This document shows positions 24,991-38,947 of a DNA stretch of 64,000 nucleotides, one piece after another; the first letter of the stretch is position 1, and each line of letters starts with the position of its first letter. The DNA comes from a virus. The notes below the pieces were generated by a model. It was given only the letters and a program-made list of their open reading frames with translations, had not been told where the DNA came from and searched no databases. The stretch covers positions 107,630-171,629 of the IMG/VR virus record IMGVR_UViG_3300036770_006954; one strand, 5' to 3'. A program made the translations under genes and the position numbers.

Positions 24991-25066
24991 GTCGAAGTAG
25001 CTCAGTGGTAGAGCAGCTTTCTTAATTGAAGGTGTGACGCGATAGGTTCGATTCCTGCCTTCGGCT
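24991..25066 (+). ncRNA. tRNA-like RNA with undetermined anticodon
   Basis: Acceptor GTCGAAG/CTTCGGC, normal D-arm, TTCGATT loop; anticodon arm GCTTTC-TTAATT-GAAGGT is irregular. Confidence 0.7.
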
Positions 25067-25096
25067 CTTAATTACTCTAAAGACTATTTATAAGAC

Positions 25097-32466: not shown

Positions 32467-32572
32467 AAGTCAAGACAGGAATCGAACCTATTTTACCGCG
32501 TACATAGCCTAACACTAAAAGTTCGTTTGACTACCTCTTTAACCTACGATTACGAGCCACTCGCTCTTGACT
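32467..32572 (-). ncRNA. AGUCA-family tRNA-like RNA (106 nt)
   Basis: AGTCAAG/CTTGACT-T acceptor, ATAGG-TTCGATT-CCTGT T-arm, non-tRNA interior. Confidence 0.75.
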
Positions 32573-32577
32573 AAATT

Positions 32578-32645
32578 ACCCGTCTTTCCAGGCTGTCAAC
32601 AACTTATGTGTTAGCCTCACACATCAATCACTAGGTTGTCAGCTT
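32578..32645 (-). ncRNA. Small structured RNA, UGACAGC/GAAAGA motif copy A
   Basis: GACAAC..GTTGTT stem then TGACAG CCTG-GAAAGA-CGGG. Confidence 0.55.
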
Positions 32646-32647
32646 TG

Positions 32648-32732
32648 TAGTCAGGACAGGATTCGAACCTGTAACTTTCGTAGATACCTTTCTGGCTCTC
32701 CCTACTGCGTATTCCTTTTTCGCCACCTGACT
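32648..32732 (-). ncRNA. AGUCA-family tRNA-like RNA (85 nt)
   Basis: AGTCAGG/CCTGACT-A, GCG/CGC D-stem, 16-nt anticodon loop, ACAGG-TTCGAAT-CCTGT. Confidence 0.8.
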
Positions 32733-32778
32733 AAAGTTAGTTTTCGGGACATTGGACAAAACTAACAAACCCTAAAAG

Positions 32779-32918
32779 TAATCGGGGTGGGAATTGAACC
32801 CACTCTAAAGGACGGTCCCTTTCTCAGTCACACAAGGTAATTACTCCTTGCTACACCTACCGTGTAATGCTTTGTGGCCACTCCACATTACCAAATGTCA
32901 ACCATAGACATCCCGATT
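32779..32918 (-). ncRNA. 140-nt RNA with tRNA acceptor stem and T-arm
   Basis: AATCGGG/CCCGATT-A, GTGGG-TTCAATT-CCCAC, multi-hairpin interior. Confidence 0.75.
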
Positions 32919-32923
32919 ATGTT

Positions 32924-33010
32924 GCCTGTCTCTCCAAGCTGTCATACCTCCCTTGTATTCTGTTCTGGCATATAGCCGTTCCTAACGGTAAAGCGGTATC
33001 AAAAACCAGT
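32924..33010 (-). ncRNA. Small structured RNA, UGACAGC/GAGAGA motif copy B
   Basis: ATACC..GGTAT stem then GACAG CTTG-GAGAGA-CAGG. Confidence 0.55.
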
Positions 33011-33013
33011 ATG

Positions 33014-33103
33014 TAGTCAGGACAGGACTCGAACCTGTACGAATGTTCCTTTCCCCGCAGACATAAAGTACAACGGTGCGCCTACCAATTACGCCACCTG
33101 ACT
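33014..33103 (-). ncRNA. AGUCA-family tRNA-like RNA (90 nt)
   Basis: AGTCAGG/CCTGACT-A, GCG/CGC D-stem, enlarged anticodon loop, ACAGG-TTCGAGT-CCTGT. Confidence 0.8.
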
Positions 33104-33111
33104 ATAATAAA

Positions 33112-33313
33112 ATGGAAACCCCCCCTCTACGCTCACCGTAGTTGTGAATTTTACTGGACATAGTTTACTGTCCACCTGTTGCGAGTCGACTGCAGAGCAG
33201 GGTCCATCACAGAGTACCTTGGGGCATGTACAACTTCTTTATGGTTGCGACCCATTTGAAGCCAAGGTTCCTTTCAACGGTGCTAATCCGTCTTCTGTAA
33301 GGAGTTTTTCCAT
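33112..33313 (-). ncRNA. ~200-nt structured RNA of unknown family
   Basis: Closing helix ATGGAAA../..TTTCCAT; internal ACCTTGG/CCAAGGT, ACAGA/TCTGT, TGGACA/TGTCCA. Confidence 0.55.
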
Positions 33314-33317
33314 TTTG

Positions 33318-33415
33318 TGGTGTGAGCGGGATTCGAACCACGCGGCACAGTCTTTTTCACGGACTTGCTCTACCATGGGAGTATCATATGAGTACTCCAC
33401 CTGAGCTATCACACC
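33318..33415 (-). tRNA. tRNA-Phe(GAA) with hairpin inserted in the D-loop
   Basis: GGTGTGA/TCACACC; loop GT-GAA-AA; D-loop contains GGAGTA-CTCATATGA-TACTCC. Confidence 0.75.
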
Positions 33416-33421
33416 TTATTG

Positions 33422-33502
33422 TACAGAGGGTGGGACTCGAACCCACACATCTTACGATACCGGTTCCTAAGACCGGCGCGGCTACCGTTACGCCACCTCT
33501 GC
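33422..33502 (-). tRNA. tRNA-Leu(UAG)
   Basis: CCGGT CT-TAG-GA ACCGG. Confidence 0.93.
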
Positions 33503-33507
33503 ATTGA

Positions 33508-33655
33508 GTTAGTAGTAGTTGACTTTATCAGGAATCCCGCCTAACCCCATTTAAGAAGTCCAGCTTCACACACCATTAGAGAGAGGGTTAATTCTTAGTG
33601 TGTACCCTTGCGATATGCTCTCCCATACCGTCAACCCACGCATTGTACTACCAAC
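33508..33655 (-). ncRNA. ~150-nt structured RNA of unknown family
   Basis: GTTGGTAGTA/TACTACTAAC and GTTGAC/GTCAAC closing helices; first element after promoter 33704-33711. Confidence 0.55.
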
Positions 33656-33673
33656 CGTTTGTTTTTTCCACCA

Positions 33674-33711
33674 TTTCAAAGACCTTTTGTCTTAACAACA
33701 CCACAAATATA
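33674..33711 (-). promoter_or_regulatory. TATATTTG promoter followed by boxA-like GGTCTTTGAAA
   Basis: Motifs read on the minus strand upstream of the ncRNA array. Confidence 0.6.
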
Positions 33712-33725
33712 TGGTAATATTTTTA

Positions 33726-34229
33726 TCAAACCAAATCTTTATGAAAAACTTTTTCTGAATTTTGTTCTACCCAAGACAAACTAATAGAAACATGTTTGGA
33801 AGATTCTTTCTTCGATGATTCAATTTTGGTTTTCACTATTTCCAAAACCTTATCAGTTGTACATTTCCAAATACCATTACAACTAAGTCCATCGTCTTTA
33901 TCAAACAAGGCAAAAAAGAATGCATCGTTTCTTTTAACCCTGTGAAGATTATCTTCATGGATTCTATCAAGTTGAAAACTACCACCTTCTTTACAAGAAA
34001 GGTACTCGTATTTTTCTTTCCCATCTTTAGAATATGCGTCAGCACCATGTTTTGTTTTATGACATTCATGACCAAGAATTTCGGAAACCATCCATTCTTT
34101 AATGAATCCTGGTGTTAACAGGTCTTGTTCAAACCCATTTTCCTTTTTGTATAGGTTTAGAGTCCCTACCAATAGAAGGAGGGGATTTTCTTGTTGTGTT
34201 ACCAAGTCGAGCAATTCATTTTGCGTCAT
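33726..34229 (-). CDS. PD-(D/E)xK restriction-endonuclease-like protein
   Basis: HGADAYSKDGKEKYEYLSCK resembles a PvuII-type active-site segment. Confidence 0.55.
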   Translation of the reverse strand: MTQNELLDLVTQQENPLLLLVGTLNLYKKENGFEQDLLTPGFIKEWMVSEILGHECHKTKHGADAYSKDGKEKYEYLSCKEGGSFQLDRIHEDNLHRVKRNDAFFFALFDKDDGLSCNGIWKCTTDKVLEIVKTKIESSKKESSKHVSISLSWVEQNSEKVFHKDLV

Positions 34230-34244
34230 AGGGTTGTATGTTAG

Positions 34245-34317
<73 letters not shown>

Positions 34318-34363
34318 GTTATGTTGGTAAATTATAGAAAACCGAATCTATAATGTCAAATTG

Positions 34364-34436
34364 TACACCCTGAAGGACTCGAACCTCCGACATCTTGCAT
34401 GTAAGGCAAGCGCTCTACCATCTGAGCTAAGAGTGT
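34364..34436 (-). tRNA. tRNA-Val(UAC)
   Basis: CTTGC CT-TAC-AT GCAAG. Confidence 0.93.
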
Positions 34437-34510
34437 ATTTGCAGGATATCGCTTAACCTGCGGTGAGTGTACCTTTCACCTTGTTCCCTTGCGGTACTAC
34501 GATTTTTTTG

Positions 34511-34616
34511 AAGTCAGTACAGGTACTGCCCCTGTTGCTTGGTCTTTTGCTTAACAGAGTATTATCAATGACACTCTGTGAACCTCACCCACGAGTTACT
34601 TTTACTCTAACTGACT
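34511..34616 (-). ncRNA. AGUCA-family tRNA-like RNA (106 nt)
   Basis: AGTCAGT/ACTGACT-T, GAGT/ACTC D-like stem, ACAGG-GGCAGTA-CCTGT T-arm. Confidence 0.7.
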
Positions 34617-34698: not shown

Positions 34699-34976
34699 TT
34701 AACAAAGAATAACCAGGATTCTGTTTTTAATCTGTCATTAGTCTATTGGCCCCACCTTACCCGACCAGCTCACCGTCATGGGTTGTTTTGGGTTGAATCC
34801 TCGGTGGTTCAACCGATATAAGGTTGTGGACTTATAACTGACCATTATAAGTTTGTTACCTTATATCTCCCACCTTAAGCTGCGATTTCCTGAGTTTCCT
34901 CTATGTTCAACATTTCACACTGTTCAGTGACAATGAACACCTGATTTTATTGAACAAAGCGACAGAACTTTGTTAA
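34699..34976 (-). ncRNA. rnpB: RNase P RNA (compact, phage-encoded)
   Basis: P1 TTAACAAAG/CTTTGTTAA; P2 CTGTCG/TGACAG; P3 TGTTCAA/TTGAACA; CR-I GAGGAAACTCAGGA; CR-IV AGACTAAT; CR-V ACAGAATCCTGGTTA; P4 AAC(U)CAGGA/UCCUGGUU with bulged U. Confidence 0.85.
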
Positions 34977-37360: not shown

Positions 37361-37552
37361 TTAGAGAATTTGAGGGTTGTTATTTTGATTAGTTGCGTTG
37401 TGAACAAAATAAGCGGTGAAAAAAATGTTGATACATAAAGATACCCAATCGTAGGTGGAAAGGGTTTCCATATTCGATAAAATCACCATCTTAGCCCCGA
37501 GCCAAAAGGTAAAAAGGTACGCCAATACCTGATAAATCATTTTTTGTGTCAT
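37361..37552 (-). CDS. Small two-TM membrane protein
   Basis: 63 aa hydrophobic; TATCTTTG promoter upstream (37576-37583). Confidence 0.6.
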   Translation of the reverse strand: MTQKMIYQVLAYLFTFWLGAKMVILSNMETLSTYDWVSLCINIFFTAYFVHNATNQNNNPQIL

Positions 37553-37924: not shown

Positions 37925-37999
37925 TGGAGAGGATGGGAATCGAACCCATATCTCTGAATTTTCAGTCCAGTGCGTACTGACCAACTGCGCTACCTCTCC
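37925..37999 (-). tRNA. tRNA-Phe(GAA)
   Basis: CTGGA CT-GAA-AA TTCAG. Confidence 0.92.
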
Positions 38000-38006
38000 A
38001 TGGCTA

Positions 38007-38023
38007 CCAATATGTCAAAGAAC
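38007..38023 (-). promoter_or_regulatory. boxA-like antitermination site
   Basis: GTTCTTTGACATATTGG between terminator and first tRNA. Confidence 0.6.
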
Positions 38024-38030
38024 TTAGTAA

Positions 38031-38067
38031 GAAAACAAAAGACCCGAACCTTTTTGGGGTTCGGGCC
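38031..38067 (-). terminator. Intrinsic (attenuator) terminator upstream of tRNA cluster
   Basis: GGCCCGAACC-CCAAAAA-GGTTCGGGTC-TTTTGTTTT. Confidence 0.8.
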
Positions 38068-38095
38068 TCTGTATAGTTTCTTACAAGTACTACAT

Positions 38096-38188
38096 TCAAA
38101 CTCCCAAACCCGCACAACTACGCTGGTACCATTTTACACAAATGATATCAAACATATTGTTAACGAGATTATGAAATAGAGTTTTCAT
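38096..38188 (-). CDS. Putative leader peptide (30 aa)
   Basis: MKTLFHNLVNNMFDIICVKWYQRSCAGLGV*; A-rich start, ~18 nt downstream of promoter; not in ORF track. Confidence 0.65.
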   Translation of the reverse strand: MKTLFHNLVNNMFDIICVKWYQRSCAGLGV

Positions 38189-38206
38189 GTTTTTATAATT
38201 ATACCA

Positions 38207-38237
38207 CAAAGATACAAAAGATTTTTAATCTATCAAA
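38207..38237 (-). promoter_or_regulatory. Bacteroidota sigma70-type promoter of the leader/tRNA unit
   Basis: TTTG-N19-TATCTTTG. Confidence 0.75.
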
Positions 38238-38947
38238 TTCTTTTTATAAATAACCGATAAATATTCACCAAATGGTGGTTCTAATTCTATAGTTGGTTCA
38301 GTATCAAACAATTCGATAATAACTTTTTGCACCTCATCAGTGTAAATATGATTATAATAATCGTGTAAAACAATTACACATTCTTTTTCCATAAATGGTC
38401 TTATTGCATATAAGTCTTGTATAATTTGTTCGGGTGTGTGTCCACCATCTAAAAATAAAAAATCGAAGCTATTGTTAGAATGGTTATGAACAACCTCCAT
38501 AACATCATCAGGACTCCAACCTATTTGTGGATTGACAACATCTTTCAAACGAAAATATTCTATAAGATAATTTACGGATTTGAAACCATCTGATTGATAG
38601 TTAGTTGATTTGTCTTCATAATCTTGGGTATAAACATCTTGTCTCTCCTCAACATAGGCATCCATCGTAACTAATTTTCCACCAGTTTGTTTGAAACCAA
38701 TACCGAGTGCCACAGTACTTACACCAAAAGCGGTCGCTAATTCAAAACCACTCTTCAGATTATATTTAATTATTAAATTTTTTAAAAACTCGAACTCGTC
38801 ATATCGAATTGACAATGGGAAATTATGATTTCCCATTCTGATACAATAATTTTCAATAATATTTTCTTGAAAAGGTTTTCTATATCCATTTATTTTATAT
38901 TCAACAGGTCCCCATTTCAATTTAGGGATTTCAAAAAATTCACTCAT
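38225..38947 (-). CDS. Class I SAM-dependent methyltransferase (Methyltransf_24-like)
   Basis: FELATAFGVST, LVTMDAY, FDFLFLDGGH, IVLHDY. Confidence 0.8.
   Translation of the reverse strand: MSEFFEIPKLKWGPVEYKINGYRKPFQENIIENYCIRMGNHNFPLSIRYDEFEFLKNLIIKYNLKSGFELATAFGVSTVALGIGFKQTGGKLVTMDAYVEERQDVYTQDYEDKSTNYQSDGFKSVNYLIEYFRLKDVVNPQIGWSPDDVMEVVHNHSNNSFDFLFLDGGHTPEQIIQDLYAIRPFMEKECVIVLHDYYNHIYTDEVQKVIIELFDTEPTIELEPPFGEYLSVIYKKNLID

Follow-up and report, generated by a model that had tools for sequence, protein, structure and literature searches.

The window, which is the whole stretch of 64,000 nucleotides that was analysed, corresponds to the final 64 kb of the 171,629-bp record (G+C 36%) of a lake phage of Bacteroidota, and holds all of the 27 tRNA genes present in the genome. 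On its minus strand, five of these genes are preceded by a region containing a promoter, a short open reading frame (ORF), a terminator and a boxA-like site. An earlier note on this DNA had interpreted the region as a ribosome-stalling attenuator. The host-type promoter, the 30-codon ORF lacking Glu and Pro but using the other 18 amino acids, the terminator with its U-tract, the boxA-like site and the five tRNA genes that it had described were all recovered at the positions that it gave. The elements of the unit are listed below, where A2 designates an alignment of 26 distinct leader sequences obtained from relatives of the phage.

38237-38207, minus: promoter of Bacteroidota type, with TTTG at -33, an N19 spacer and TATCTTTG at -7; both elements are conserved in A2
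38188-38096, minus: leader ORF of 30 codons plus stop (ATG at 38188, stop at 38098-38096), with an invariant core at about codons 13-23 (F..IC.KWYQR)
38156-38119, minus: P1 hairpin within the ORF (codons 12-23, 14 pairs), predicted by RNAalifold, with all cells paired in 26 sequences
38111-38103, minus: 5' strand of the antiterminator (segment 2), GGGUUUGGG, within codons 26-29 and ending 4 nt ahead of the stop codon
38100-38097 with 38071-38068, and 38094-38089 with 38077-38072, minus: nested inner helices that extend the antiterminator and include the stop codon; three pairs change on both sides
38070-38031, minus: intrinsic terminator (G+C-rich stem, 7-nt loop, U-tract), from hairpin prediction and conserved pairing
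38065-38057, minus: shared strand CCCGAACCC, which is both the 3' strand of the antiterminator and the 5' arm of the terminator, in mutually exclusive use according to pairing and covariation
38023-38007, minus: 17-nt rrn-type boxA-like element between the terminator and tRNA-Phe, invariant in A2 except for one position
37999-37613, minus: the putatively regulated genes, tRNA-Phe(GAA), Ile(GAU), Gln(UUG), Arg(ACG) and Trp(CCA), from tRNA calls
37607-37576, minus: next promoter, identified by its motif, which marks the 3' boundary of the cassette and drives a 63-codon gene at 37552

The window contains 12 copies of the pattern followed by the first promoter (TTTG, 17-21 nt, TAnnTTTG), where 3.9 would be expected, and 12 was reached in none of 100 shuffles. 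Transcription is predicted to start about 12 nt ahead of the leader ATG, which leaves an untranslated leader of only ~12 nt, and no Shine-Dalgarno sequence is present at the ORF. Within the window, a leader of this kind (208 nt, with a terminator inside) is found only at the Phe cluster; at the other tRNA clusters (Ala-Glu, His-Cys and the plus-strand Arg) the promoter ends 10-12 nt before the first tRNA. No strong terminator was detected ahead of any other tRNA cluster in the window and no paralogous leader in the genome. The ~30 nt from the U-tract to tRNA-Phe contain no full promoter, and the TTTG within the boxA element, just before tRNA-Phe, may serve as part of a weak one. The earlier note had cautioned that an internal promoter at ~37580 would limit the tRNAs under control of the leader, and this promoter is indeed found at 37607-37576. 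It is kept in L004, a relative devoid of the leader and the five tRNAs.

Some further observations concern the surroundings of the unit. The leader and the five tRNAs form a cassette flanked by similar promoters (38237-38207 and 37607-37576, minus), and the cassette-less relatives L004 and L005 carry a single promoter that resembles a hybrid of the two (L004 3700-3780), suggesting from these sequences that the cassette was gained or lost by recombination between the promoter copies. Separate notes on the window place a candidate phage RNase P RNA and candidate tRNA-like RNAs in this strand block (34699-34976 and 32467-34616, minus). On the plus strand, a tRNA predicted by ARAGORN at the end of a Ser-Arg-Thr-Gly cluster (24991-25067) has an anticodon of four bases (taat), and could be either a frameshift-suppressor-like tRNA or a mis-call.

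Conservation of the leader among relatives

Searches of phage databases at the DNA and protein levels, with the region, the neighbouring methyltransferase and a 208-residue neighbour, returned tRNA-level matches or none and no close relative, and scans of IMG/VR with the methyltransferase and three leader patterns yielded nothing or chance matches. Relatives were obtained instead from the contigs of metagenomic homologues of the methyltransferase and, for 15 further loci, by a pattern scan of metagenome contigs. Together these sources, freshwater and other metagenomes, provided the 26 distinct leader sequences of A2. The scan pattern fixes two conserved blocks, and the clade found solely by this means (L027-L029, L031, L032 and L036) is therefore biased towards keeping them. 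Remote homologues of the methyltransferase (44-48% identity) were also considered as a source of leaders and discarded; they sit in sugar-modification islands without tRNAs and thus contribute no further leader variants.

Gene order is kept among the contigs of the methyltransferase homologues, and wherever the Phe-Ile-Gln-Arg-Trp cluster is present in a relative, the leader lies immediately 5' of it. The gene upstream of the leader varies, and may be the methyltransferase, a 54- or 67-codon gene, a gene for a beta-helix protein or a second methyltransferase. In L002-L005 the five tRNAs are absent and both the leader and the terminator are absent too, which indicates that the hairpin is not the terminator of the upstream gene and that the unit moves with the tRNA cassette. 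Identity of the leader is 87-98% among relatives in which the methyltransferase protein is 71-83% identical. Some contigs (L001 3949-4008, L010-L015 3452-3534, L023 3089-4240) show a fusion or degradation of tRNA-Phe and tRNA-Ile, or the insertion of an HNH endonuclease gene in the cluster; the leader nevertheless retains its Phe and Ile codons in these contigs.

All 26 distinct relatives keep the leader frame open, over a length of 29-32 codons, with 1-6 stops in the other two frames, and the 3-nt deletion observed in L023 is in frame. Positions 13, 16, 17 and 19-23 are invariant (F, I, C, K, W, Y, Q and R), with synonymous variation at the Cys, Lys and Tyr codons, and codons 3-11 and 24-30 vary freely. 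The three clades differ in how the frame ends, with the stop codon still placed 4-10 nt past the antiterminator strand in all of them. Among the last codons non-synonymous changes occur (Gly-Leu-Gly to Ser-Ser-Gly) while the RNA pairing is preserved, which locates selection there on the RNA. On these comparative grounds, the short leader ORF is maintained by selection; its translation is predicted. The peptide matches no family in Pfam or PHROGs and contains no membrane-like segment, and the exact peptide is not recorded as a called gene. Contigs from RNA libraries, some of them probably DNA, cover the leader and the tRNAs piecemeal and show neither transcript ends nor levels.

Alternative pairings in the leader RNA

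The terminator at 38070-38031 is the sole strong terminator-like site of the minus strand within 30-42 kb. It is conserved across the 26 sequences, with about 99.7-99.8% of its cells paired in A2 and two pairs that change on both sides. The complementarity between the end of the ORF and the 5' arm of this terminator (9 bp, one of them G.U), which the earlier note had proposed to form a mutually exclusive antiterminator, is likewise present, conserved and covarying. In A2, 97% of the antiterminator cells are paired (97.7% is the value given for the antiterminator plus the inner helix), together with 91.5% of the cells of the adjoining inner helix, and in a control in which the partners were slid by 1-3 columns only 31-51% of cells were paired. 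In the strand shared by both structures, column 225 (mostly C, U in seven sequences) has its antiterminator partner at column 170 and its terminator partner at column 233, and both partners covary with it; pair 170:225 switches from GC to AU in 7 sequences, a covariation that comes from few independent lineages and mainly from one deep split between clades. Such dual covariation in the alignment is what would be expected for mutually exclusive helices.

The 201-nt leader folds more stably than its shuffles (z = -5.2), and in the full-length fold the terminator is extended to a hairpin of ~30 bp by pairing of the U-tract with an upstream A-rich strand. In naked RNA the antiterminator strand pairs with the 5' part of the frame, which favours the terminator state by 4-10 kcal/mol. 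This 1:2 pairing (the anti-antiterminator of classical attenuators) appears in the minimum-energy folds; its duplex energy is no better than that of shuffled sequences (p 0.1-0.67), and it is accordingly not counted as a selected feature. When only the RNA 3' of a stalled ribosome was folded, before the 3' arm of the terminator exists, the antiterminator with its nested inner helices was the minimum-energy fold in 14 of 14 distinct sequences. It lies within ~4 kcal/mol of the terminator state, which it surpasses in stability in 8 of these 14 sequences, and in five representatives it is 3.2-4.5 standard deviations more stable than dinucleotide shuffles.

The position of the ribosome was modelled with a footprint of 27 nt. 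The footprint covers the antiterminator strand once the A site has reached codon 23 (codon 24 in the L029-type leader), and at earlier codons it leaves the strand free. A previous version of the footprint model, in which pairing around the stalled ribosome was allowed, had given mixed free-energy differences, and was superseded by the folding of RNA 3' of the ribosome. As foreseen in the earlier note, a modelled ribosome that has advanced to codon 23 or beyond blocks the antiterminator, and one stalled upstream frees it to adopt the best fold as long as the 3' arm of the terminator is missing. In the model, masking by the terminating ribosome and release by the upstream-stalled one reproduce the classical geometry of an attenuator. 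ORF conservation, covariation, geometry and energetics lend strong comparative support to a ribosome-dependent switch between terminator and antiterminator ahead of the tRNAs, and the conserved leader is, on the evidence of the alignment, a genuine cis-regulatory unit. No Rfam family other than tRNA, and no T-box, was matched on the minus strand at 38000-38240 with E values up to 1.

The most conserved stretch of the leader is the P1 hairpin, which lies inside the ORF. Six of its pairs change one-sidedly, always staying paired, and several of these changes are non-synonymous. Base pairing in P1 joins the Met and Phe codons to those for Arg and Gln, and the Ile codons to those for Lys, Trp and Tyr; the hairpin also includes an 8-nt palindrome (a KpnI site plus flanks). 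From its predicted fold and location, P1 might possibly act as an RNA polymerase pause or synchronising hairpin. Its extreme conservation exceeds what the attenuator model alone explains, and P1 may have a role of its own, be it polymerase pausing, factor binding or peptide-mediated arrest.

The boxA element and the codons of the leader

The exact 17-mer found between the terminator and tRNA-Phe is present in more than 120 bacterial genome contigs, overwhelmingly of Bacteroidota (Pedobacter, Mucilaginibacter, Chitinophaga, Niabella, Flavihumibacter). In 7 of 7 Bacteroidota loci checked it is located in the 16S-23S spacer, past the spacer tRNAs and 80-200 nt before the 23S rRNA, and an identical 17-mer between spacer tRNAs and 23S was observed in Pedobacter, Flavihumibacter, Niabella and Mucilaginibacter. 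The boxA-like site noticed at this place is, accordingly, identical to a 17-nt element of the rRNA-operon spacer of Bacteroidota. This location is that of the spacer boxA in rRNA operons, by comparison with E. coli, and the first 11 nt of the element resemble the general bacterial boxA. By analogy with E. coli, the element would bind NusB/S10 and confer resistance to termination. Literature searches combining boxA with the 17-nt motif found nothing relevant. For about half of the rows of A2, those from the pattern scan, 13 of the 17 bases of the element were fixed by the search pattern, a fact to be kept in mind when its near invariance in the alignment is considered.

The 17-mer is also present in more than 116 viral contigs, and in 35 of the 116 that were fetched it is followed, at a distance of 24-31 nt, by the start of a tRNA gene, whose identity varies. 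In others (L048, L055, L061, L063, L064, L075, L078, L089, L111, L118, L122, L134, L152 and L163) it has a second, near-identical context that lacks a tRNA call downstream, and there it may precede another stable RNA. The 17-mer may in general be a marker of stable-RNA transcription units and, for uncultured phages, of the host phylum.

As regards the signal that is sensed, the earlier note had envisaged a pan-codon sensor, in which stalling at almost any codon of a peptide of diverse composition would allow read-through. This part of the proposal is not supported. Codons 3-11 and 24-30 drift, and the invariant core contains one codon for each downstream tRNA, the Phe, Ile, Trp, Gln and Arg codons being at invariant positions 13, 16, 20, 22 and 23, respectively. 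The probability that five amino acids taken at random all fall among the ten invariant residue types is 252/15504 = 0.016, according to post hoc arithmetic. Cognate codons make up 7 of 29 in the leader of the window, against a background of 17% (p 0.21), and up to 11 of 31 in L029. Three of the codons concerned are rare in the phage, TGG, CAG and CGT accounting for 1.2%, 0.7% and 0.6% of its codons.

A second line of evidence came from a screen of the viral contigs carrying the 17-mer, in which an ATG frame no shorter than 15 codons had to be followed by a T-tract, the 17-nt element and a tRNA cluster, in that order. It identified ORF-terminator-boxA-tRNA units with unrelated leader peptides in other phage contigs, namely L049, L052/L124, L083, L088, L123, L143, L148 and L160, where frames of 23-37 codons are found ~300 nt before the element; L083 was added by eye after the automatic screen, a possible source of bias. 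In seven non-redundant units, including the family of the window, each leader contains every amino acid of its own tRNA cluster, one of these clusters comprising seven tRNA types with Cys and Trp among them. Only 8 of 5040 re-pairings of leaders with clusters are as good as the real one (p about 0.002), and none of 1854 derangements is. Besides, the 3' end of the ORF complements the 5' arm of the terminator at p<0.05 in 6 of 8 other units. That independent units match their own tRNA sets speaks against the pan-codon sensor and against a peptide-specific one, and supports cognate-codon sensing. The comparison thus points to multivalent sensing of cognate codons rather than of any codon.

Probable leader-peptide attenuation of the tRNA genes

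The reading that we favour is that the leader constitutes a cognate-codon, ribosome-mediated transcription attenuator of the leader-peptide type that gates the phage tRNA cluster, to which we assign on the comparative evidence a probability of roughly 0.7. Transcription would start at the host-type promoter and the 30-codon frame would be translated from nearly the 5' end of the RNA. A ribosome running smoothly to the stop codon would cover the G-rich antiterminator strand, allowing the terminator to form and ending transcription ~150 nt in. A ribosome held up at about codon 22 or earlier, most likely at the invariant Phe, Ile, Trp, Gln or Arg codons that the five downstream tRNAs read, would leave this strand free to pair with the 5' arm of the terminator before its 3' arm is synthesised, and the polymerase would read through. 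It would then transcribe the host rrn-type boxA, probably loading a Nus-factor antitermination complex suited to an untranslated tRNA cluster. The net effect would be a feedback loop in which slow decoding of the matching codons leads to more phage tRNA.

A different possibility is that the switch is real and its signal is not tRNA supply. The sensor would be the P1 hairpin, bound by a phage or host protein or by a small RNA, or the nascent peptide core IC.KWYQR, causing a ligand-dependent arrest as in TnaC and the Erm leaders. Such a sensor would account for P1 being the most conserved part of the leader, with every change pair-preserving, and for an invariant core that also includes Cys, Lys and Tyr, for which the cluster has no tRNA; the window leader, moreover, shows no overall enrichment in cognate codons. 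The invariant cognate codons themselves form both arms of P1, and RNA structure alone could account for their conservation. On the contrary, units of the same design in other phages, with unrelated peptides that each match their own tRNA set, would not be expected from a peptide or hairpin sensor, and the peptide matches no known family. We therefore regard a signal other than tRNA supply as rather unlikely.

Two explanations dispense with the switch. The ORF might be an ordinary small gene with its own terminator, whose peptide is functional, the tRNAs being transcribed by leaky read-through or from a weak promoter and the complementarity having no role. Conservation of the ORF and of parts of the peptide would agree with it, as would the TTTG inside the element right before tRNA-Phe. 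However, the unit is never seen without the tRNA cluster, as L002-L005 illustrate, no full promoter fits between terminator and tRNA-Phe, and the peptide has neither a family nor a membrane-like segment; the antiterminator, for its part, is far more stable than chance and its pairing is kept by compensatory change while the C-terminal residues change, all of which makes an ordinary gene highly improbable. Alternatively, the region might produce a non-coding RNA or a processing element, either a small RNA released at the terminator or an RNase III-type hairpin trimming the 5' end of the tRNA precursor, with an incidental frame. The ~30-bp hairpin of the full-length fold and a nucleotide conservation of the leader above that of the flanking protein gene would fit this scenario. 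Nevertheless, a frame that is open in all 26 sequences over three clades, with an in-frame indel and the other frames closed, a stop codon fixed in position relative to the antiterminator strand and the lack of an Rfam match leave it extremely unlikely.

A cognate-codon attenuator would find its closest parallels in the enterobacterial leader attenuators (trpL, hisL, pheL, thrL and the multivalent ilvGMEDA), which share with the phage unit a short translated leader frame, a terminator and an exclusive antiterminator. Also shared are the masking of the antiterminator by a ribosome at the stop codon and the placement of the regulatory codons 10-20 nt upstream of that strand, and the ilv and thr leaders sense several amino acids, as the phage leader would. 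The differences are nonetheless considerable: the phage unit would regulate tRNAs and not biosynthetic enzymes, its cognate codons occur once or twice each and not in runs, it has no evident selected 1:2 anti-antiterminator, a boxA follows its terminator, and it belongs to a phage of Bacteroidota, without a Shine-Dalgarno sequence and with an untranslated leader of ~12 nt. The E. coli pheST attenuator, with its pheM leader, makes the expression of a translation-apparatus gene depend on how fast the codons cognate to it are read. It concerns a single amino acid and a synthetase, whereas the phage unit would concern five tRNA genes. T-box riboswitches also exert terminator/antiterminator control in response to tRNA status; they bind uncharged tRNA directly and without a translated frame, whereas the phage unit has a frame and no T-box match. 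The rrn boxA, the NusB-S10 signal, is represented in the phage by an identical copy of the Bacteroidota rRNA-operon element (38023-38007), which sits here after an attenuator and before tRNA genes. In searches of full-text literature, no account was retrieved of tRNA genes, phage-borne or other, being controlled by leader-peptide attenuation, which fits the statement of the earlier note that no control of this kind had been described on phage tRNA clusters.

It has long been asked why phages have tRNA genes and at what point they make use of them; the explanations include codon-usage matching, the replacement of degraded host tRNAs and the escape from anticodon nucleases. In a broader formulation, to which we would give even odds, phages of Bacteroidota run a homeostatic 'tRNA-on-demand' circuit, in which the block is transcribed only when its own codons are read slowly, the borrowed host rrn boxA then makes the polymerase resistant to termination, and the decoding capacity missing because of tRNA cleavage, degradation or starvation is topped up codon by codon. 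If true, a cis-acting sensor of decoding speed would turn these phage tRNAs into an inducible repair kit instead of a constitutive supplement, and the leader would report the codons that the phage "expects" to become limiting. This would extend leader-peptide attenuation from amino-acid supply to tRNA supply, and would link attenuation with rrn-type antitermination on a phage.
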